A stretch of 64,000 nt of DNA from Rhizobium sp. Q54 (GTDB lineage Bacteria > Pseudomonadota > Alphaproteobacteria > SHVZ01), in assembly GCA_945871425.1 (NCBI GenBank), contig CAMBVS010000008.1, positions 18,325 through 82,324 on the forward strand, in the 5' to 3' direction. Below the pieces are notes generated by a model. It was not told the DNA's origin, searched no databases, and saw only the letters and a program-made list of their open reading frames with translations. A program made the position numbers and the translations under genes. Numbering within the stretch: position 1 is the first letter of the stretch; each line of letters starts with the position of its first letter. Below, one piece after another: positions 4,496 through 44,274 of this stretch.

Positions 4496-6229
4496 CTAGG
4501 CTGCGCGGATCTCGCGCAGGAAGGCGTCGACCTGGGCCTTCAGTGTCTCGCCGTTCTTGCCCAATTCGCTGGCGGAGGCCGACACCTGGCCGGCAGCCTC
4601 GCCGCTCCGGCGCGCCGCCCGGCTGACGCCGGTGATGTTGTTCGACACCTCGCCATTGCCTTCGGCCACCTGCTGGACGTTGTGAGCGATCTCCTGCGTC
4701 GAAACGCCCTGCTGCTCCACCGCCGCCGCGATCGCGCCGGCCGTGCCGCTCACCTGGCCGATGGTCTCGGCGATGCTGCGGATCGACACCACCGAGACCT
4801 GGGTTGCGTCCTGGATAGCCCGGATCTGGGCCGCGATCTCTTCCGTCGCCTTCGCCGTCTGAGTGGCCAGCGCCTTGACCTCGGACGCAACCACGGCGAA
4901 GCCCTTGCCGGCATCGCCCGCACGCGCCGCCTCGATCGTGGCATTGAGCGCCAGCAGGTTGGTCTGTCCGGCAATGCCGCTGATCAGGTCGACGACGTCG
5001 CCGATCTTCTGCGCCGTCGCGGCCAGGCCTTGCACCTGCGCGTTGGTGGCGTTCGCCTTCGTCACCGCCGCTGCGATCAGCTGCGTCGAACTGGTGACTT
5101 GCTGGGCAATCTCCCTGATCGAGGCGGAAAGCTGCTCGGTCGCCGTGGCGACAGTGTGCACGTTCCGCGTCGCCTCCTCGGAGGCCGCAGCCACGGTCGC
5201 GGTCTGACGTGTGGTCTCCTCCGACGTCGCCGCCATCGATTTCGCCGTCGACCGCAACTCGCTAGCCTGTGAGGCAACCGAATTGACCACCCCGCCGACA
5301 CTGGCCTCGAACCGGTCGGCCAGGTCGAGCATCGCCTTGCGTCGCTCGGCCTCGGTACGCTGCTTCTGCGCTTCCTGCTCTGCGCGCAGGCGTCCGGTCT
5401 CGATCATGTTGTCCTTGAAGAACTGTACCGCCTTGGCCATCTCGCCGATCTCGTCGTGCCGCGACGCATAGGGGATGTCGACGCTCGAGTCGCCACCCGA
5501 CAGCCGCATCATCACGCCGCTTATGGAGGTGAGTGGCCTGACGACCCCGCGCGAGACGGTCGCATAGCCGAGGCCGGCGATCGCCAGCGCCAGGAAGACC
5601 GCCAGGCCCACCACGATCGAAGTGATCTTCATGGTCGTCGCCTCGATTGCGGCAACCTTCGCCGCGCCACTCTGTTCCACCGCCTCGCGGAACTGCTTGA
5701 GCGCCGCCTGCAGCGTCGTCTCGGCCGGAACGACCGTCTTGGACAGCTGCTCGATGGCATCCGCCTGGGCAAAGGCCGCGGCCAGCTCGAAGACCTTCTT
5801 GGACGCGGCCTCGAACGAGCCGAGGGCGCCGACGATTCCGGCGCCGCTGTCGGTGATCGCGGCTGCCGTGTTGTCGGCCAGCGTCTCGCTCAGGGTCATT
5901 CTGACTTCGCCGAGAAGCGCCAGGAAGCGCTCCTGCATGGCCTTTAGCTTCTCGAGGTCCAATTCGGACGGAGCGGCGTGAACTTCGCCGATGGCGCGCT
6001 CGACGTTGATCGAGACCGCCATCTCCAAGCCGGAGAAGCGGCTGCTCTCGGCGTAGAGATCCTCCCCCAGGTCCCGGATATCGCGAGCGGCGAAGACGGC
6101 GATCGCGCCCATGACGCACAGGACGACCACGGCGGCGCTGAGCACGCCCCAAAGCTTGGTCGAAACCTTTAACCGCTTGAGCCTCGCGAACCCGACCATG
6201 ACGGACCTCATCAACTTCGTGGTGAACAC
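4496..6229 (-). CDS. Methyl-accepting chemotaxis protein (four-helix-bundle-like periplasmic region, HAMP, MA domain)
   Basis: Two TM segments flank a helical region of about 160 aa. A HAMP-like segment is present ([17 protein letters not shown]). The conserved signalling hairpin is present ([31 protein letters not shown]). Confidence 0.92.
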
Positions 6230-6289
6230 TCAGAAAATCGCCGGCCGGTTGACAGGCCGCTCGGCCTGTCAGCCGTGCCGGCCCGATCG

Positions 6290-7054
6290 CTACTTCTTGG
6301 CAGCGCCGAGTTTGGCCGCCGCTTCGATGAACTTCTTCGCGTCCGGCGTGGGCGGCCCCTTGGTCACCAGAGCGAGCACCTGCTTGATCTCCGCTCCGGC
6401 GACGGGCGCCACCGCCGGCGTAATGCTGGCACCGTTGCCATAGCCGATGGCGTTCGGAGCCTGGGCGACGATCTGGGAGAGCTGGACGAAGCTCTGCACC
6501 GGGCGGGCCTTGTCGGTGATCTCGGTGCCGCCGAGGAACTGGTTGACCACGAGCGTGCGCTGCCCCAGGCCCTGGGCGGCGGTCACGACGATGATCGGCT
6601 GGTCGCCGCCGCCGACGTCCTTCCACGACGTGATCTTGCCGGTGAAGATGTCCTTGAGCTGAGCCTCGGTCAGCGCCTTGACCGGGTTGGAGGGGTGGAC
6701 GATGAACCTGAGGGTCTCGCCACCGACAGGCACCACCTCGAAGCCTTCGATGCTGATCGAGCCCGGGTTGGCCTTGTTCAGGTTGGCTTCGGTGAGCTTG
6801 ATCGGCGAGGCGACCATGGCGACGTCGGACTTGCCGGCGTAGAGGTCCTTGAGGCCGTTGCCGTCGCCGTTGACGATGACGTTGACCTTCAGGCCGGTTT
6901 CCTGCTCGATCGCCGCCTTGTTAGGGTTGACGACGCCGGCCGCCACGGTGGCGCTGCCGCTGATCTTCAGCTCGCCGGCAGCGAGCGCATCGCCGTTGGC
7001 CAACAGCAGGAACACGGCCCCGGCCATCAGCGCTTTCTGGAACATGCAAGACAT
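6290..7054 (-). CDS. Periplasmic PstS-like (PBP type 2) substrate-binding protein
   Basis: Signal peptide, then SGSATV and a PstS-family-like core (LKDIFTGKITSWKDVGG). It lies 60 nt upstream of the MCP on the same strand. Confidence 0.7.
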   Translation of the reverse strand: MSCMFQKALMAGAVFLLLANGDALAAGELKISGSATVAAGVVNPNKAAIEQETGLKVNVIVNGDGNGLKDLYAGKSDVAMVASPIKLTEANLNKANPGSISIEGFEVVPVGGETLRFIVHPSNPVKALTEAQLKDIFTGKITSWKDVGGGDQPIIVVTAAQGLGQRTLVVNQFLGGTEITDKARPVQSFVQLSQIVAQAPNAIGYGNGASITPAVAPVAGAEIKQVLALVTKGPPTPDAKKFIEAAAKLGAAKK

Positions 7055-7096
7055 GTGAGCCCTTCCTTTCGAGTGGCGGAGTTAACCATCGATAGC

Positions 7097-7165
7097 GGGA
7101 GGCTACCGAAGAGGCGGAGACATCCCCATCAACCGAAAGTATGAGAGGCCTCGAATGTTCGGGAG
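7097..7165 (-). promoter_or_regulatory. Conserved leader element, copy 1 (unclassified; core only)
   Basis: Aligns without gaps to copies at 8256..8322 and 9815..9880. Invariant blocks are TCATACTTTCG, TGATGGGGATG and CGTAG. Its 3' end is about 42 nt (mini-ORF TAG 48 nt) upstream of the SBP start codon. Confidence 0.75.
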
Positions 7166-7442
7166 CGGCACGACCGCCGAGCAGGCGTGGCCGTCGGCAC
7201 GGCAGGCCCGGGACGACACTGGTCTCCTCGCCCTGGGCGAAGAGCGTGCCGCCGGCCTCGAGCAGGCTCTCTGGGCCAGGGACCCGGTCGCTTCGAACCG
7301 GGTCGGCCGTCCGGGATCGCCGATCGTCTCATGAGTGAGGCGCAGGATCGCCTGGTGCAGGCAGGACCGATCCTCGTCGCGCCGGGTGACCGGGCCAGCG
7401 ACGAGGTCGGCGACCACGAATCGGCCGGCCCGCCTTCCGAAT

Positions 7443-8198
7443 TCAGTCCGCGGCGGAATGGCCCTGCGAAGTGCGGGCGTGGCCGAACTCTCCCACCGCC
7501 TCGGCGCCGCTCCGGCCGGCCCTCGAAGGCAGCGAAGGGAGCATGGAGCGCAGCACGTCGTCTCGGCGAACGTAGTGGTGGAAGAGCGCCGCCGCCGCAT
7601 GCAGGCCGATGAGGGCCAGCATGCCCCAGGCGAGGATCGCCTTGAGAAGCAGCAATACTTCCGCAATGTCCGGGTCGCCGAAGTCGGAGACCGGCGGAAT
7701 GTTGACGCCGAACACCTCCAGCTCCTTGCCGGCGTAGCCGAGATAGGCCCAGCCGAGCAGCGGGACGGCGATGAGCAGGCCGTAGAACGCGGCGTGAACG
7801 AGACGGGCGACGATCTGCTCGGCGGTCCACTTGCCCTGGCGTGCGTGGCCGGGCTTCGGATGCAACAGGCGCCAGCCGAGGCGACAGATGACCACCGCGA
7901 GAAGGAGCATGCCGAGGCTCTTGTGCAAGGCGCGCGATCCGTCGACGATCCCGGGCACCATCACGAGGGTGTAGAGCGCGACGACGAGGCCGAGCGTCGT
8001 CCAATGGAAGGCCTTGCTGACGGGGTCGTACGAGGCGGGGCGTCGGCGGACCGAGGTCATCGTCATTGCCGGATCCTCGCGGCGCGAAGGTGGGGTCAAG
8101 GTCAACGGGCGGGCCCTGGTCGAGGCCGGCGATACGCTGCTCGTCCAGGACGGGAAGACCAGCGTCGGCAGGTCGGCGAAGTCGTCCGGGGGGGTCAT
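7443..8198 (-). CDS. Cytochrome b561 family protein (CybB-like)
   Basis: Four TM helices with conserved His (KAFHWTT, RLVHAAFY, LHAAAALFHH). An alternative start at ATG 8066 (GAGGA SD) would give about 207 aa. The 8198..8067 extension has high GC3. Confidence 0.85.
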   Translation of the reverse strand: MTPPDDFADLPTLVFPSWTSSVSPASTRARPLTLTPPSRREDPAMTMTSVRRRPASYDPVSKAFHWTTLGLVVALYTLVMVPGIVDGSRALHKSLGMLLLAVVICRLGWRLLHPKPGHARQGKWTAEQIVARLVHAAFYGLLIAVPLLGWAYLGYAGKELEVFGVNIPPVSDFGDPDIAEVLLLLKAILAWGMLALIGLHAAAALFHHYVRRDDVLRSMLPSLPSRAGRSGAEAVGEFGHARTSQGHSAAD

Positions 8199-8255
8199 GG
8201 CACTGGTTCTCTCGCTGCCTGTCTGGCCGGGCCTCCTGTCGGACCCGGCAAGATC

Positions 8256-8383
8256 GAGACTACGGAAGGGGTGCCCGCATCCCCATCAGTCGAAAGTATG
8301 AAGCGCTTCGAAAGCTCGGACGCGGCGGAGGGGAAACCGGCCGGCGAGCTCCGGGCGCGGCAGGACCGGACACCGAATGCCGG
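8256..8383 (-). promoter_or_regulatory. Conserved leader element, copy 2 (core plus 5' extension shared with copy 3)
   Basis: The core 8256..8322 aligns to copies 1 and 3. The stretch 8319..8383 matches 9878..9942 at 46 of 65 positions without gaps (hand count). Confidence 0.75.
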
Positions 8384-8460
8384 ACTCGAGCCACCGGATC
8401 TGTCGGTCTCCGGACCGGACCGGGTGGGGCTGCGTCACCCACCTCTCTCCAGTAGCCCGG

Positions 8461-8489
8461 ATCCTGTCAAAAACCGGCGATTCTGTCAA
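8461..8489 (-). promoter_or_regulatory. Candidate sigma-70 promoter for the cytochrome b561 transcript
   Basis: On the minus strand: CTTGACA (8489..8484), a 17-nt spacer, then CAGGAT (8466..8461). An A/T-rich UP-like block lies upstream (8491..8525). This is the only A/T-rich patch in this intergenic region. Confidence 0.35.
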
Positions 8490-8587
8490 GGTAAAAATTA
8501 CGCATTTCGACGATTTTTTTCCGCGGCATTCGAGGCCATGGACGATGCCCGTCGGCGGCAGGATCGGGCCAGACGGTCAAAATGATG

Positions 8588-8609
8588 AGGCCGCCCTGGA
8601 GGGCGGCCT
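8588..8609 (-). terminator. Rho-independent-type terminator after the CxxCH lipoprotein gene
   Basis: On the minus strand: AGGCCGCCC-TCCA-GGGCGGCCT followed by CATCATTTTGA. Perfect 9-bp stem. Confidence 0.6.
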
Positions 8610-8705
8610 TCATCGGGACGTCGGTTCTCCGGCGGCATTTCTCGGCAGGAGCCGGGGTCGACGAGGCGGGAGGGACCATGGGGCCACCTCCCGCGTCGCG
8701 GACGA

Positions 8706-9740
8706 TCAGCTCGTCGGTTTGTTCTTGGGTTGGTTCTTCCTCTCCCAGGCGTTCGCCTCTTCGATCGCCTTCTTGAAGGCCTCGCCGGTGATCAGCAGCT
8801 CGTTCTTGAGCTTCGGATCCATGGCCTTCGGATCGCCCTTTTCGGTCTGCGGCATCTTGTTGTCGCGAACCGACTTGAGGATGCCGTCGATCTCGGAGGC
8901 GGCGTGCCGCGGGGTCATCAGCATCGTCAGGCGGTTCATGATCTTGTGGCCGTCCGGCGCATGGCAGGCCATGCAGTCGCCACCGCGCATGGCGAGCGCG
9001 ACGGTCTTGTAGGTTTCGTCGAGCCGGGCGAGGTGCGGGTTGCCGGCGCTGTACTGCTCGGAGAAGAGCGTGATGTAGGGCTGGGTCTGACCCTTGTCAT
9101 CCGACCACATCCACTGGCCGTCGAAGGCGGGCGGCTTCACCGGGGCCCAGGCCCACGGACCGCGATTGTCGTAGCTGCCCTCATGCGCGCGGGTGACGAA
9201 CTTCGCCTTGCCGTCGGCGCCGAGGTAGAAGCGGATCTCGTTCGCCGTCTCGTAGGCTACCCACTTGTCGCCGTGGTGCCAGAAAGGATACGGATAGGCG
9301 CCCGGCGGCAGGGCGTTGCGGAAGTAGGCCTCGATCGAGACGATCGTGGTGCCTTCGGGCCCCTCGCCGAGGATCTTCTGCTTGCCGGAGAACATGAAGA
9401 GCGAGAAATAGGTGCTCCGCCAGAAATCGCTCTTGATGTAGGCGAGCTTCTTCTTGTCCCAGCCGAGCTTCGGCTGCTCTCCGCCCCACAGCACCACGTT
9501 GTCGTTCAGCGCGAGGTTCTCGTCGCCCGTGCCCATGCCATGGCGGCATTTATCGAACGCCGTCATGTCGTCGGGCTTCGCCACCGGGCAGATCTTGGAC
9601 AGCGACGCGGCGAGCTTCTCGGCGTAGGATTTCATGTCGACCTTCTTGGTCGGCGACTCGCCGCAGGCGGCGAGGGTGGCCGCGACGGCGAGGACGCCGG
9701 CGAGACCCCAAGAGCGTGCAGTTGTCGGCATGTTGAACAT
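8706..9740 (-). CDS. Putative lipoprotein with a single CxxCH motif (possible c-type haem or other tetrapyrrole-binding protein), function unknown
   Basis: Lipobox LAAC after a signal peptide. A CMACH motif lies near the C-terminus. No family was recognised by eye. Confidence 0.6.
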   Translation of the reverse strand: MFNMPTTARSWGLAGVLAVAATLAACGESPTKKVDMKSYAEKLAASLSKICPVAKPDDMTAFDKCRHGMGTGDENLALNDNVVLWGGEQPKLGWDKKKLAYIKSDFWRSTYFSLFMFSGKQKILGEGPEGTTIVSIEAYFRNALPPGAYPYPFWHHGDKWVAYETANEIRFYLGADGKAKFVTRAHEGSYDNRGPWAWAPVKPPAFDGQWMWSDDKGQTQPYITLFSEQYSAGNPHLARLDETYKTVALAMRGGDCMACHAPDGHKIMNRLTMLMTPRHAASEIDGILKSVRDNKMPQTEKGDPKAMDPKLKNELLITGEAFKKAIEEANAWERKNQPKNKPTS

Positions 9741-9814
9741 CTGGATTCCTTTCCTCGGAATGGTCTCTTGGCTTGCGCCGTGGACGGTGGCGCCCAGGTA
9801 AGGCGCATGAGAGG

Positions 9815-9942
9815 GAGACTACGGATAAACCGCAGGCATCCCCATCAACCGAAAGTATGAGGAGCATCGAAAATTCGGGAGGGTCGGAGGCGGCGCCGGC
9901 GGGCGAGCTCCGGGAGCGTCCGGACCGCCGAACCGAGGCCGG
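9815..9942 (-). promoter_or_regulatory. Conserved leader element, copy 3 (core plus 5' extension)
   Basis: It starts 6 nt after the btuB-like stop codon. Its 3' end is about 74 nt (mini-ORF TAG 78 nt) before the lipoprotein ATG. It aligns to copies 1 and 2. Confidence 0.75.
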
Positions 9943-9947
9943 CCGCC

Positions 9948-11873
9948 TCAGCGGTCGGCGTCGATGCTGACCCGAATACCGACGAAGGCCCCGACGCCCG
10001 GCCGCTGGAACCCCGTCGGGTCCTCGTAGCGCCGGTCCAGCAGGTTCTCGATCCGCGCGAACGCCGTCGCCCGGCCGGTCAGCCGATAGCTCCCGGCGAC
10101 GTTCACGACCGTGTAGCCGGGCGCGCTCAGCCGCTGGACCGAGAAGTCACGGTTGCCGTCGACCCGGGATCCGACATAGAGGGCCGAGAGCGTCAGCGCC
10201 GTGTGGTCGTCGACCTGCCAGATCGCCGCCGCGCTCGCCTTGTGCTTCGGCCGGCGGAGCAGCGCCCATCCGGTCTCGTTGTCCCGTGCCTGCGTGTAGG
10301 TGTGGTCGCCCCTCAACGTCAGCCAGGGCGTGAGAGCGAAAGCGGCGAAGGACTCGACGCCCTCGGTCGTCGCCGACGGCCGGTTCTCGAGCGATGTGAA
10401 TCCAGCGTTCGTGGTGATGAGGTCGGTGATGTCGTTGTGGAAGTAGGTGGCGCCGAAGCGGAGGCGGCCGTCGAGGAGCGATTGTTCGACCCCGGCGTCG
10501 TAGCCCTTGCTTCGTTCCGGCGTGAGCCGGGGGTTGGCGAAGAAGTTGAATGCCGGGTAACTGACGAACAGCTGCGACAGGCTGGGCGCCTTGAAGCCGG
10601 TGCCGTAGCTGGCCTTGAGGCGGGTCGCGGTTTCGCCGATCAGGAAGCTGGGTGCGATCCGCCAGGTGGTGACACCGCCGAAGCGCTCATTATCGTCACG
10701 CCTGACGCTGAGGCTGTTGAACAGCCGGCCGCCGAAGCCTGAGTCGAGCTGCAGATGGCCGGCGCCGGTCTTGTTCTCGGCCGTCGTCGTGCCGTCGTCG
10801 AGGCCGTCAGTCGCATGCTCCAGCCCGCCGGTAAGCGTCTGCCCGGCGCCGATCGCGAGCACACCCAGCCAGTCGACCTTGGCCCGGTCGCCGCTGTAGG
10901 CGGTCGTCGGCGTCAGCACAGGGTCCGGTCCGACGATCTCGCGCCGATGCTCGGAATAGGCGATGCCGGCACGCTGCTCGAAGGCGCCCTCGAAAGCGAG
11001 GTGACGCGCCTCTAGGCGGCTGACCAGAAGACGGCTCTCCGAGCGGCTCTGCGCGGCGGCCGGCGTCGCGGGAAAGGTCGAGAAGTCGTCGCCGGTGAAG
11101 CGGAGTCTGGCGTCGGCATAGCGGGCAACCAAGCCAAGGCTGAACTCGTCGCTGAGCTTCGCCTCCAGACGCGTCGAGGCGGTGAGGTTATCGGCCCGGT
11201 CGCCGATCCGCCCGCGCCCCGGCGGCAGCAGCGACGAAGGCGTCACCGGCGTATCCCCGGCATGAAGATGCGCGACATTGAAGGCATAGTCGAAGCGGTC
11301 GGCGGAACCTCTCACGCCGGCGGTCTGGTTGAAGGTCGAGAAGGATCCGCCTTCGAGGGTGGCCGTCGCTCGTGTCGGCCACGCGCCCTTGCGCGTGACG
11401 ATGTTGATGACGCCGCCGATGGCATCGGAGCCATAGAGGCCGCTCTGCGGTCCGCGCAGGACCTCGATCCGTTCGATGTCGGAGGTCAGCAGGTTGCCGA
11501 AGTCGAAGGCGCCATTGGCGTTGCTGGGATCACCGGCATCGACGCCGTCGATCATCACCTTGGTGTGGTTGGTGTTGGTGCCCCGCAGCGAGACGGTCGT
11601 CGCACCGCCTGGCCCTCCCGCCTGGACGACCGTGACGCCGGGGATGGCGCGAAGGACGTCCGGCACCGTTCGCTGCTGGCCGCGATCGATGTCGGCGGCG
11701 GTGACCACGGTGACGGTACTGCCGACCTGGTCGATCGGCATGGGACGGCGGGTCGGCGAGACGGTGATGACCAGGGGCTGGCGTTCGTCGGCGGCGGCCG
11801 CCGACGGAAGTAGCAGCGACGCAAGGAGGAACGCAGCCCGGAGGGCCGCCTGGGAATGGTCGGAGAAATGCAC
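9948..11873 (-). CDS. btuB: TonB-dependent outer-membrane receptor, probable cobalamin/corrinoid transporter
   Basis: Plug domain motifs (VTVVTAADI, IEVLRGPQSGLYGSDAIGGVINIVT) and a C-terminal beta-barrel ending in an aromatic-rich strand. A cobalamin riboswitch lies directly upstream. GTG start with a GAGGG SD. Confidence 0.85.
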   Translation of the reverse strand: MHFSDHSQAALRAAFLLASLLLPSAAAADERQPLVITVSPTRRPMPIDQVGSTVTVVTAADIDRGQQRTVPDVLRAIPGVTVVQAGGPGGATTVSLRGTNTNHTKVMIDGVDAGDPSNANGAFDFGNLLTSDIERIEVLRGPQSGLYGSDAIGGVINIVTRKGAWPTRATATLEGGSFSTFNQTAGVRGSADRFDYAFNVAHLHAGDTPVTPSSLLPPGRGRIGDRADNLTASTRLEAKLSDEFSLGLVARYADARLRFTGDDFSTFPATPAAAQSRSESRLLVSRLEARHLAFEGAFEQRAGIAYSEHRREIVGPDPVLTPTTAYSGDRAKVDWLGVLAIGAGQTLTGGLEHATDGLDDGTTTAENKTGAGHLQLDSGFGGRLFNSLSVRRDDNERFGGVTTWRIAPSFLIGETATRLKASYGTGFKAPSLSQLFVSYPAFNFFANPRLTPERSKGYDAGVEQSLLDGRLRFGATYFHNDITDLITTNAGFTSLENRPSATTEGVESFAAFALTPWLTLRGDHTYTQARDNETGWALLRRPKHKASAAAIWQVDDHTALTLSALYVGSRVDGNRDFSVQRLSAPGYTVVNVAGSYRLTGRATAFARIENLLDRRYEDPTGFQRPGVGAFVGIRVSIDADR

Positions 11874-41230: not shown

Positions 41231-42715
41231 ATGCGCAAGCTCACGCTGTTCACCGCCGCGCTCGCGGCCGGTGCGTTCGCCGCCACCGGCGCCTACGCCC
41301 AGAAGGACTCGATCACGCTCAGCATGGCGCTCGAGCCGCCGCACCTCGACCCGGTCCTGAGCCCGGCCGCCGCGATCAAGGAGATCCTCTACACCAACAT
41401 CTACGAGGGCCTGACCCGGCTCGACCGCAAGAGCCTGGTGCAGCCGGGCCTGGCGACCGAGTGGACGCTCTCGGCTGACGGCCTCGTCTACACCTTCAAG
41501 CTTCGCCGCGGCGTCAAGTTCCACGACGGCACCGAGCTGACCTCGGCCGCCGTCGCCCAGTCGCTGGCGCGCACCACCTCGGCCGAGAGCGCCAATCCGA
41601 AGAAGTCGATGCTGACCGACAACGGCATGGAGGTAACGACGCCCGATCCGGGCACCGTCGTCATCCGCCTGAAGAAACCGGTCGGCCTCGTCCCCTACCT
41701 GGTCGGCATGGGCGAAGCCGTCGTGGTGGCGCCGGGCGCCATCGCCGACGCCAAGGCCAAGCCGGTCGGCACCGGCCCGTTCAAGTTCGTCCGCTGGAAC
41801 AAGGGCGACCGGCTCGAGATCGAGAAGAACCCCGACCATTGGAACGCCGCCAACATCAAGCTGAACAAGGCGACCTTCCGCTTCATCCCTGACGCGGCCG
41901 CGACGGTCGCGGCGCTCCTGGCTGGCGACATCGACGCCTCGCCCAACACCGGCGCCGGCGACGCGCTGGATCGCCTCAAGGCCGATCCCAAGCTCAAGGT
42001 CGTGGTCGGCAACACCGAGGGCGAGACCATCCTCGCCATGAACAACAAGAAGGCGCCGCTCGACGACGTTCGCGTACGCCGCGCCATCAGCCATGCGATC
42101 GACCGGAAGGCGATCATCATCGGAGCCGCTGGCGGCACCGCGACGCCGATCGGAACGCATTTCTCGCCGAACCACCCGGCCTATGTCGACCTGACGGGCA
42201 TGTATCCTTTTGACCCGGCGAAGGCCAAGGCGCTGCTGGCCGAAGCCGGCAAAACCAATCTGACGCTTTCGCTCCGCCTGCCGCCGCCGGCCTATGCCCA
42301 GCGTGGCGGCGAGCTGATCGCCGCCATGCTGGAGCAGGTCGGCGTCAAGGCGCAGATCGAACAGCTTCAGTTCCCGCAGTGGCTCGAGCAGGTGTTCAAG
42401 AACAAGCAGTACGACCTGACCATCATCAGCCACACCGAGCCGCTCGACATCAACATCTACGCCGACCCCAACTACTACTTCCAGTACGGCAAGCCCGAGT
42501 TCAAGGCGCTGATCGACCTGACGGTGTCCGCGGGCACGGACGAGATCCGCAACAAGGCCTTCGGCGACGCTCAGCGCATGCTGGCGACCGACGCGGTCAA
42601 CGGCTTCCTGTTCATGCTGCCGAAGACCGGCGTGTGGAATGCGAAGATCCAGGGCCTGTGGGAGAACAGCCCGGTCCAGGCCAACGACTTGACCGAAGTC
42701 CGCTGGGTCAACTGA
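41231..42715 (+). CDS. ABC transporter substrate-binding protein, family 5 (peptide/nickel, DppA-like)
   Basis: Signal peptide, GTGPFKFVRWNKGDRLEIEKN, 494 aa. Confidence 0.9.
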   Translation: MRKLTLFTAALAAGAFAATGAYAQKDSITLSMALEPPHLDPVLSPAAAIKEILYTNIYEGLTRLDRKSLVQPGLATEWTLSADGLVYTFKLRRGVKFHDGTELTSAAVAQSLARTTSAESANPKKSMLTDNGMEVTTPDPGTVVIRLKKPVGLVPYLVGMGEAVVVAPGAIADAKAKPVGTGPFKFVRWNKGDRLEIEKNPDHWNAANIKLNKATFRFIPDAAATVAALLAGDIDASPNTGAGDALDRLKADPKLKVVVGNTEGETILAMNNKKAPLDDVRVRRAISHAIDRKAIIIGAAGGTATPIGTHFSPNHPAYVDLTGMYPFDPAKAKALLAEAGKTNLTLSLRLPPPAYAQRGGELIAAMLEQVGVKAQIEQLQFPQWLEQVFKNKQYDLTIISHTEPLDINIYADPNYYFQYGKPEFKALIDLTVSAGTDEIRNKAFGDAQRMLATDAVNGFLFMLPKTGVWNAKIQGLWENSPVQANDLTEVRWVN

Positions 42716-42792
42716 CGAGCTGTCGACTGTCACGGCGGCGCAACCAACCTCTGGCAAGATGCGCCGCCGTTCTATTTTGAGGAGCTCTGAAG

Positions 42793-44274
42793 ATGCGTGT
42801 TTTCGCTGCCCCCGTGGTCCTCGCCCTCGTTCTCGCCGCGACCTCCGCCTTCGCCGCCAAGGACACCATCGTCCTCGGCATGCAGGACGAGCCGCCGGTG
42901 CTCGACCCGACGCAGAACGCCGCCGCCGCGATCGACGTCATCTTCAGCGTCAACGTCTATGAGAGCCTGACGCGGATCGGAGAGGACGGCACCGTCAAGC
43001 CGGGCCTCGCCACCTCATGGACCGTCGCGGAGGACGGCAAGGCCTATACCTTCAAGCTGCCGAAGGGCGTCGTCTTCGACAATGGCGAGAAGCTGACCTC
43101 GGAGACGGTGAAGTGGTCCTTCGAGCGGGCCGGCGCCGCCAACTCGACCAACCCGACCAAGCGGCATTTCGGCGCCATCGCGGCGATCGAGACGCCCGAC
43201 CCCGAGACCGTGGTGCTGCGCCTGAAGCAGCCTTCCAGCCTCTTCCTTTCCTACATGGCGTCGGGAGGTGCCGCGATCTTCGATCCGAAGTCGGCGGAGG
43301 GAAACAAGAGTAACCCGGTCGGCACCGGTCCCTACAAGTTCAAGCAATGGGTCAAGGGCGACCGCGTCGTGCTGGAGAAGTCGCCGACCTACCGCGACCA
43401 GTCGAAGGCGACGATCCGCCAGGCGACCTTCAAGTTCGTGCCGGACGCGGCCGCCCAGGTGCCGGCGCTGCTCGCCGGCGACATCGACGCCTTCGGCACG
43501 ATCGGCGCGACCGAGACCCTGGATCGCTTCAAGGCCGATCCCCGCTTCCAGGTGATCATCGGCTCGACCGAGGGCGAGGTGCCGCTGATCCTCAACAACA
43601 ACAAGAAGCCCTTCGACGACATCCGCGTCCGCCGCGCGGTCAACCACGCGATCGAGCGGAAGTCGATCATCGACGGCGCCACTTCCGGCTACGGCCTGCC
43701 CATCGGCAGCCACTTCCCGCCGCATCACCCCTGGTACGTCGACCTGACCAACCGCTACCCGCACGATATCGCCAAGGCGAAGGAGCTGCTGAAGGAAGCG
43801 GGATATCCGAACGGCATCGAGATCAACATCAAGCCGCCGCCCTTCGCCTATGCCCGGCGCTCGGCCGAGATCGTCGCCGCCCAGCTTTCCGAGGCCGGCA
43901 TCCGGGTCAAGATCGAACCGGTGGAGTGGGCGCAGTGGCTCGACGTGGTTTACAAGCAGAAGAACTACGACATGACCGTGGTCGCCCACGTGTCGCCCTG
44001 GGACCAGGACAACTACACGCGCGGCCTCGACTACTATTACGGCTATAAGAGCGACGCGATGGACGCGCTGATGAAGGCGGCCCTGGTCGAGAGCGACGAG
44101 GCCAAGCGGAAGGGCCTCTACGAGCAGATCCAGCGGAAGATCGCCGACGACGCCGTCCACGCCTTCATGTTCCAGCTGCCCAGGACCGGCGTCTATGCCG
44201 CCAAGCTCCGGGGCTTCTGGAAGAGCGCGCCGGTCTCCGTCACCGATCTGGCGGCCTTGCGCTGGGTGGACTAA
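42793..44274 (+). CDS. ABC transporter substrate-binding protein, family 5 (second paralog)
   Basis: Signal peptide, GTGPYKFKQWVKGDRVVLEKS, 493 aa. It is collinear with the preceding SBP. Confidence 0.9.
   Translation: MRVFAAPVVLALVLAATSAFAAKDTIVLGMQDEPPVLDPTQNAAAAIDVIFSVNVYESLTRIGEDGTVKPGLATSWTVAEDGKAYTFKLPKGVVFDNGEKLTSETVKWSFERAGAANSTNPTKRHFGAIAAIETPDPETVVLRLKQPSSLFLSYMASGGAAIFDPKSAEGNKSNPVGTGPYKFKQWVKGDRVVLEKSPTYRDQSKATIRQATFKFVPDAAAQVPALLAGDIDAFGTIGATETLDRFKADPRFQVIIGSTEGEVPLILNNNKKPFDDIRVRRAVNHAIERKSIIDGATSGYGLPIGSHFPPHHPWYVDLTNRYPHDIAKAKELLKEAGYPNGIEINIKPPPFAYARRSAEIVAAQLSEAGIRVKIEPVEWAQWLDVVYKQKNYDMTVVAHVSPWDQDNYTRGLDYYYGYKSDAMDALMKAALVESDEAKRKGLYEQIQRKIADDAVHAFMFQLPRTGVYAAKLRGFWKSAPVSVTDLAALRWVD

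Follow-up and report, generated by a model that had tools for sequence, protein, structure and literature searches.

Three consecutive genes on the minus strand of a 64,000-nucleotide stretch of DNA from Rhizobium sp. Q54 (contig CAMBVS010000008.1, positions 18,325 to 82,324; "the window" hereafter means this whole 64-kb stretch) are each preceded by a copy of the same short element, which raises the question of what the copies, c1, c2, and c3, do there. An earlier note on this DNA had proposed a cis-regulatory RNA, a long regulator or alternative-sigma binding region, or a locus-restricted repeat. The second option is favoured by the promoter anatomy of the element and by its membership of a regulon, and we hold, with somewhat more confidence than doubt, that the copies are activator-dependent promoter modules that enrol the three window genes in a motility/chemotaxis regulon. 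The motif appears to be undescribed and yet to belong to a familiar kind of promoter element; when the motif string was looked for in the literature, nothing but unrelated primers matched it.

The minus-strand segments first quoted for c1 (7165-7097), c2 (8322-8256), and c3 (9880-9815) are found exactly there, and their gap-free alignment is borne out, with 48-53 of 66 positions identical in each pair. The paired-block pattern TCATACTTTCG-NN-TGATGGGGATG has three matches in 64 kb at up to three mismatches, against 0.00 expected from 100 dinucleotide shuffles, and a profile search of the window gave no fourth, weaker copy. All three copies are oriented with the next gene, whose first ATG follows the end of c1, c2, and c3 by 42, 57, and 74 nt, respectively, rather than by the 48, 61, and 78 nt reported before. 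The blocks described as invariant are so among the window copies, but the invariant GGGGATG tail of the second block is confined to this genome, the conserved box across homologues ending in ...GATGG. Likewise, the 12-nt variable window between the blocks is indeed constant in length, but is only part of a 20-nt spacer of fixed length, and the third block, C(C/G)GTAG(T/C)CTC, is real and is now read as a −10-type hexamer. The parts of the three copies, with the two upstream elements discussed further below, are as follows.

9842-9860, minus strand: c3 box, TCATACTTTCGGTTGATGG; exact match, 0 expected; the same box stands before che genes elsewhere; would span about −51 to −33
9822-9841, minus strand: c3 spacer, 20 nt, free in sequence and fixed in length
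9816-9821, minus strand: c3 −10-like hexamer, TAGTCT; predicted start at about 9809, so that about 68 nt of 5′ untranslated sequence would precede the lipoprotein start codon (ATG at 9740)
8283-8301, minus strand: c2 box, TCATACTTTCGACTGATGG; present in L054, a close relative, as GGTTGATGG
8263-8282, minus strand: c2 spacer; 5 substitutions relative to L054 in the 13 nt between GGGGATGC and TTCCG
8257-8262, minus strand: c2 −10-like hexamer, TAGTCT; predicted start at about 8250; cytochrome b561 ATG at 8198 downstream
7126-7144, minus strand: c1 box, TCATACTTTCGGTTGATGG; exact match, placed also by the box alignment
7106-7125, minus strand: c1 spacer, placed by the box alignment
7100-7105, minus strand: c1 −10-like hexamer, TAGCCT; predicted start at about 7093; binding-protein ATG at 7054, followed by the gene for a methyl-accepting chemotaxis protein (MCP)
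8323-8383, minus strand: upstream extension of c2, partner of 9881-9942 at c3; 133-nt repeat, 73% identity
9864-9878, minus strand: genome-specific upstream block CCGAAnnTTCGAnGC of c3; equivalents at 8305-8319 (c2) and 7148-7162 (c1)

The anatomy of the element emerges when the window copies and their homologues in other genomes, 25-28 instances in all, are aligned on the box. The box is a nearly invariant, asymmetric 19-bp sequence (alignment positions 1-19) with the consensus YCATACTTTCGRYTGATGG; sampling anchored on proteins, and hence unbiased by the motif, gives YCATAC(T/G)TYYGRYKGATRK. It is followed by a spacer (positions 20-39) that carries almost no information and is always 20 nt long in 28 instances, and then, at positions 40-45, by (T/C)AnnnT, in which A2 is present in 17 of 25 and T6 in 21 of 25 against a background of about 67% G+C. 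When every offset from 5 to 39 is considered, [TC]AnnnT is found at offset 20 in 20 of the 28 instances, at offset 22 in 4, and at each other offset in 0 or 1. A box, a free spacer of fixed length, and a hexamer at a single offset together lead us to read the third block as a −10-type hexamer and the 12-nt window as part of the spacer, and the sigma-70-family test on the hexamer likewise found an A2/T6 −10-like element at a fixed position. With the hexamer taken as the −10 element (−12 to −7), the box would span approximately −51 to −33. A consensus scan reported no promoter at the copies, and no TTGACA-like −35 element stands 16-18 bp from the hexamer; the box contains TTGATG, but 21 bp away, and at a distance of 17 bp the sequence is TGGnnn.

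L054 retains every box and hexamer of the three copies, a 200-nt indel lies upstream of c2, and the blocks flanking the c2 spacer are unchanged except at two variable box positions. The TAGCCT hexamer of c1 recurs at the cheY copy of contig L026.

The same module is found in front of motility genes well beyond this locus. A scan of species-representative genomes with the 18-base core gave 16 matches, about as many as the approximately 17 estimated for a random 18-base pattern, among which the true homologues were two alphaproteobacterial metagenome-assembled genomes, L001 and L014; in both, the element lies between cheB and cheR with the same box and spacing and with CCGTAA where the window has CCGTAG. 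Relaxed scans of these two loci revealed further copies before cheY, a PAS protein gene, and two divergent CheZ genes. A metagenome scan by DNA pattern added L024, L026, L027, L032, L033, L047, L035, L037, and L049, with the box on high-G+C contigs standing before cheY, cheR, cheZ, a REC-EAL gene, and a small open reading frame (ORF) plus PilZ gene. Since pattern scans return exact matches only, clusters were also sampled through CheZ protein homologues, and in those so obtained (L056, L057, L059, and L060) boxes precede cheR, cheY, cheA-cheW, cheZl, and cheZs; no box is present at a Telmatospirillum locus whose CheZ is 45% identical. The contig L057 comes from the same sample as L054, and its tetranucleotide similarity to the window (r = 0.986, next to 0.983 for L023) is compatible with a related genome without being discriminating.

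In related genomes, the genes that stand behind the module are thus cheA-cheW, cheY, cheR, both cheZ paralogues, and one each of the REC-EAL phosphodiesterase, PilZ, and PAS types. The presence of the box before chemotaxis genes in at least eight other contigs, from related uncultured Alphaproteobacteria, refutes the idea of a locus-restricted repeat. Every instance points at a start codon lying 41-101 nt from the 3′ end of the box, and divergent boxes stand back to back between the two cheZ genes; these features, together with the anatomy and the strict orientation, all fit a promoter. As the same module precedes late motility genes elsewhere, the window copies would therefore place their own genes under chemotaxis control, and the window genes fit a link to motility independently, in that c1 precedes a binding protein and an MCP.

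Two side observations concern the instances outside the window. The boxes at L001 2714-2732, L014 7688-7706, and L027 3580-3598 run into the 3′ end of the REC-EAL gene upstream, covering its final codons and stop, and the encoded proteins therefore all end in HTFD, a promoter-like element within coding sequence thus constraining a C-terminus. On L039 (49% G+C), two boxes lie in tandem at 960-999 with starts 21 nt apart, and a third follows the second by 234 nt, at 1215-1233; TGTAATC comes after both of these later boxes, and the arrangement does not fit the pattern of one box per gene.

In the predicted mechanism, an activator would occupy the box, around −51 to −33, and recruit RNA polymerase carrying a housekeeping-type sigma factor, as the A2/T6 hexamer suggests, and transcription would start approximately 7 nt after the hexamer, so that each target (the lipoprotein gene, the cytochrome b561 gene, and the binding-protein/MCP operon) would have its own start site. 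Such activation would be class II-like, as by CtrA and by response regulators of the LuxR/NarL type at promoters without a −35 hexamer. The comparison of position with the latter holds only if TAnnnT is the −10 element, in which case the box would lie nearly where CrbR binds its ACTU motif, at −52 to −36 (PMC5715377), and the RpuR-dependent mctP promoter likewise has a −10 element and no recognisable −35 (PMC9100948). The likeness to the CrbR and RpuR promoters would lie in an activator site just upstream of or over the −35 region; the ACTU motif differs in being an imperfect inverted repeat of another sequence (e.g., TACTACCATCGTCGAAT), whereas the box has at most the symmetry CCAT-N11-ATGG. 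CtrA promoters share with the module a motility/chemotaxis regulon and would share a response-regulator site beside or over the −35 region, where activating CtrA sites are located (PMC6180460), but their sequence is unrelated, and the present box, an asymmetric 19-bp sequence, contains no 11-bp direct repeat.

As reader of the box, the best candidate is a REC-GerE (NarL/FixJ-family) response regulator, whose gene adjoins the cheZ genes in all six of the clusters of this kind sampled (L001, L014, L032/L056, L057, L059, and L060), mostly directly downstream of cheZs in an operon behind a box. Genes of the LuxR type also adjoin the boxes in L035/L037/L049, which face a major facilitator superfamily (MFS) transporter gene, and in L033/L047, before moaF, and these two regulators are homologous. 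A regulator of the REC-GerE or LuxR type is thus encoded beside the box in all three contexts, a further likeness to LuxR/NarL-type promoters, with the link between regulator and box being a predicted one. A tblastn search of the window found no orthologue of either the che-cluster response regulator or the LuxR-type regulators.

In the three marine contigs of this group (L035, L037, and L049; 52-57% G+C), the CAT at positions 2-4 of the box (L037 3348-3366, L035 411-429, and L049 10786-10804) is also the ATG of the divergent LuxR-family regulator, a protein of 236-238 residues with a GerE domain (8.5e-17), while the box faces the MFS gene; the 19-mer is fully conserved among the three, and the flanks are only about 65-75% alike by a by-eye estimate. 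Antisense genes starting from an ATG inside the box were also considered for the window and rejected: the window ORFs are 37-95 codons long, have a third-position G+C content of 0.64-0.78, and are not conserved, and such a gene is real (LuxR-family) only in the three marine contigs.

Several observations weigh against an activator-dependent promoter. The putative −10 element is assigned, at all copies, from sequence statistics, and the hexamer is missing at offset 20 in 8 of the 28 instances. The box is asymmetric, reading CCAT-N11-ATGG at best, which would be uncommon in a site for a dimeric activator of the helix-turn-helix type. About 170 nt upstream of c2 there is a conserved region resembling a promoter of the TTGACA type, so that this box would be transcribed from there too. 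In other lineages, the identical 19-mer stands before the MFS gene of L035/L037/L049 and before the moaF-permease operon of L033/L047, and the LuxR-type regulators there are only 38-51% identical in their DNA-binding domains to the che-cluster response regulator; DNA-binding domains so divergent behind one box would be compatible with a reader that is conserved and associated with the polymerase, an alternative sigma factor for example. Finally, at the cheY copy, the spacer can be drawn as a hairpin of 7 bp with two compensatory double changes between L001 (2687-2713; GGGCCGC/GCGGCCC) and L014 (7707-7733; GGTCGGC/GCCGACC), changes that are seen at no other copy and that a pure spacer does not predict.

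The strongest rival, which we regard as unlikely, is that a dedicated alternative sigma factor of the late-flagellar, FliA-like type reads the module, the box serving as an extended −35 element and no activator being needed. In enterobacteria (Escherichia coli and Salmonella), the FliA class III regulon consists of che genes, MCP genes, and genes for an EAL phosphodiesterase and a PilZ protein, and the gene set found here (cheA/W, cheY, cheR, cheZ, EAL, PilZ, PAS, and MCP) mirrors it. The strict geometry from box to hexamer would suit a sigma factor as well, several copies have CGTA just before or in the hexamer, like some −10 elements of extracytoplasmic function (ECF) sigma factors, and the occurrence of one box in several lineages beside different regulators is more easily explained by a conserved polymerase subunit.

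However, the 19 conserved positions far exceed the contact made by sigma region 4, A2 with T6 is the hallmark of housekeeping-type −10 recognition, and no sigma gene was seen in the che clusters. Nor does the spacing fit, with TTGATG 21 bp from the hexamer and no AAC-type −35 element 16-17 bp upstream of CGT. FliA (sigma-28) class III promoters, alike in gene set, differ in having a −10 element CGATAA where TAnnnT stands here, and no sigma-28-like match with up to three mismatches or sigma-54-like match with up to two overlaps any copy. The sigma-28 pattern TAAA-N15-GCCGATAA has 27 matches in the window at three mismatches, the nearest (9722-9748) spanning the lipoprotein start codon, and the sigma-54 pattern TGGCAC-N5-TTGC (GG at −24, GC at −12) has 39 at two mismatches, against 52 expected, with none inside the copies. 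As for ECF sigma factors (AAC at −35, CGT at −10), CGTA is found only in some copies, others reading GGTA, CCTA, CTTA, or AGTA, and AAC occurs at the required distance in 0 of 28. Two further candidates were rejected: an FNR/CRP-type dyad, for which TTGAT-GGGG-ATGnn provides a single FNR half-site, and an IHF site on the opposite strand, where inspection shows ATCAA-N4 followed by AAG, not TTR.

A cis-regulatory RNA was the first option of the earlier note. Riboswitches and leaders of the kinds catalogued in Rfam resemble the copies in lying between genes, in sense orientation, ahead of start codons, but differ from them in that the copies have neither an Rfam match nor conserved pairing. Only the cobalamin riboswitch upstream passes the gathering score in the window, the interval 6900-10100 at E<=10 yields two chance matches away from the copies, and L001 and L014 yield none. 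With five sequences, the RNAalifold energy was −6.4 kcal/mol and the covariation term was positive; with 22, the energy was −0.17 kcal/mol, with 4 pairs and 0 compensatory changes. The hairpin suggested earlier (CUGCGG/CCGUAG register) is 42.7% paired, against 40.2% for shuffled controls and 32-40% with a slid partner, and a second register is 42.4% paired, against 41.8% for its control. With no Rfam match and with neither a consensus structure nor covariation in 22 homologues, a cis-regulatory RNA is unsupported. Of the other features reported for the copies, CCGAA-N20-TTCGG is present, as stated, in c1 and c3 only.

An unstructured site in the mRNA, through which a ribonuclease, a small RNA, or a protein that binds RNA would govern how the downstream cistron is translated or how stable its segment of the message is, amounts to that first option without the riboswitch-like fold; it is about as unlikely as the dedicated sigma factor, and a shade more doubtful. 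In its favour, two of the window copies, the cheB-cheR copies, and the EAL-cheY copies are intercistronic or overlap the upstream stop codon and are therefore probably transcribed from upstream; c2 lies in a leader behind the conserved promoter-like region; the orientation is always that of the downstream gene; and there are the compensatory changes in the spacer hairpin of one orthologous pair. What argues against it, besides the folding results (no Rfam match, no covarying pairs at −0.17 kcal/mol, and both hairpin registers at control level), is the geometry: a site in mRNA gives no reason for TAnnnT at exactly 20 nt or for divergent boxes back to back between cheZ genes, and the box, 41-101 nt before the start codon, is away from the ribosome binding site.

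That the copies are non-functional or generic repeated DNA, either REP- or MITE-like elements (repetitive extragenic palindromes or miniature inverted-repeat transposable elements) or remnants of local duplication, is very improbable. Duplication has certainly contributed, as the window copies share 70-133 nt including flanks without counterpart elsewhere, and orthologous loci at 62-66% identity lack the element. Nevertheless, only three copies exist in 64 kb, all oriented toward the next gene, the box is kept in other genomes amid unrelated flanks, box and hexamer are invariant relative to L054 while the c2 spacer diverges, and there is no inverted-repeat or hairpin body. That the copies are so similar over 70-133 nt comes from a single promoter cassette having been duplicated in this lineage. 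The 65-nt 5′ extension common to c2 and c3 is identical at 46 of 65 positions, exactly as had been counted by hand; in L054, the extension of c2 is replaced by sequence resembling the region upstream of c1, and it therefore behaves as a duplicated flank. The block CCGAAnnTTCGAnGC is kept in c1-c3 and in L054, whereas the homologues of other genomes lack it; it belongs to the duplicated cassette or else forms an additional upstream site.

The weakest reading, a leader peptide MGMxxxx(P/R)* (ATG GGG ATG, four codons, C(C/G)G, and TAG) whose translation controls the downstream gene, is scarcely credible, for although its frame and stop codon (TAG or TAA) are kept in c1-c3 and in the cheR copies of L001 and L014 (ATG GGG AWG, four codons, and CSG TAR over the five copies that retain it), the ATG is lost in true homologues (GATAG, GATAT, GATAC, and GATTG), no Shine-Dalgarno sequence precedes it, and conservation is at the nucleotide level and upstream of the ORF, not at the peptide level.

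The earlier note had held that absence from orthologous loci would count against function, and the box is in fact absent from all four orthologous lipoprotein/b561 operons examined (62-66% identity). This reflects turnover of the regulon and not lack of function; L054 keeps all three copies, and among the four distant orthologues there are two with a CtrA-type box at a similar distance from the ATG. TTAA-N7-TTAA of the CtrA type lies about 100 nt before the ATG in L051 (314-328) and L053 (309-323), and also at the MCP gene of L023 (7444-7458); a full CtrA site (TTAA-N7-TTAA or TTAACCAT) was found nowhere in the 64-kb window, L057, L001, or L014. The lipoprotein/b561 orthologues adjoin an MCP gene in L023 and a PilZ gene in L053. 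In our reading, one and the same operon is connected to the control of motility through CtrA in some genomes and through the factor that reads the box here.

The genes around the copies are arranged as had been claimed, on the minus strand from the riboswitch through the MCP gene.

12172-11982, minus strand: full-length cobalamin riboswitch (RF00174, 108.6 bits), preceding the TonB-dependent receptor gene and separate from the copies
11873-9948, minus strand: TonB-dependent receptor gene, between the riboswitch and c3
8706-9740, minus strand: first target, CxxCH lipoprotein of 344 residues, without a Pfam or NCBIfam family
8609-8588, minus strand: terminator-like hairpin between the lipoprotein gene and c2
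7443-8198, minus strand: second target, cytochrome b561 (PF01292, 1.1e-26)
4496-7054, minus strand: third target, an operon of a PstS-like periplasmic binding protein (6290-7054) and an MCP (4496-6229) (PF12849, PF00015, and PF00672)

The CxxCH lipoprotein family has 131 homologues and is fused to cytochrome b561 in P0017-P0019. The c3 copy begins 68 nt past the stop codon of the TonB-dependent receptor gene with no terminator predicted in between, and the lipoprotein gene may therefore be transcribed from the riboswitch-controlled transcript in addition to its own promoter. The promoter-like region about 170 nt upstream of c2 (8423-8495, minus strand) contains TTGACA twice (8489-8484 and 8470-8465; TTGACA-N17-CAGGAT), followed by a hairpin GGTGGG...CCCACC at 8443-8423 on the same strand, in which a U-A to U-G change in L054 retains pairing. 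Both the TTGACA region and the hairpin are conserved in L054 despite the 200-nt indel after them, and the region could be a second cytochrome b561 promoter or a small RNA. Elsewhere in the window, 41277-43748 holds a tandem duplication of about 1.55 kb with 70-75% identity (repeat families D1-D3, D8, and D17), which looks like two adjacent paralogous genes.

A more far-reaching possibility, which we consider improbable, is that the element belongs to an undescribed master control of late motility genes that has taken the place of CtrA at these promoters in an uncultured lineage of Alphaproteobacteria and is possibly exerted by a sigma-like factor or a polymerase-associated adaptor. An identical 19-mer with identical spacing to a −10 element stands before unrelated operons beside LuxR-family regulators in other Alphaproteobacteria, and its reader may therefore be some widely conserved component instead of a local transcription factor; if this were true, the element would represent a new promoter class, beyond a new operator.

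If the copies are activator-dependent promoter modules, as we favour, the pattern of a block, a variable window of fixed length, and a further block is to be recognised as promoter anatomy and not taken for an RNA hairpin by default. The family of CxxCH lipoproteins would gain a place in the chemotaxis regulon, as would cytochrome b561 and the binding-protein/MCP pair, and a role of these genes in redox or energy taxis is a reasonable guess. The 19-bp box would be specific enough to predict the motility regulon of an uncultured lineage and to fish out its regulator. Altogether, the locus would illustrate regulatory turnover, in which the same operon stands behind a CtrA-type site in two genomes and behind the box here.

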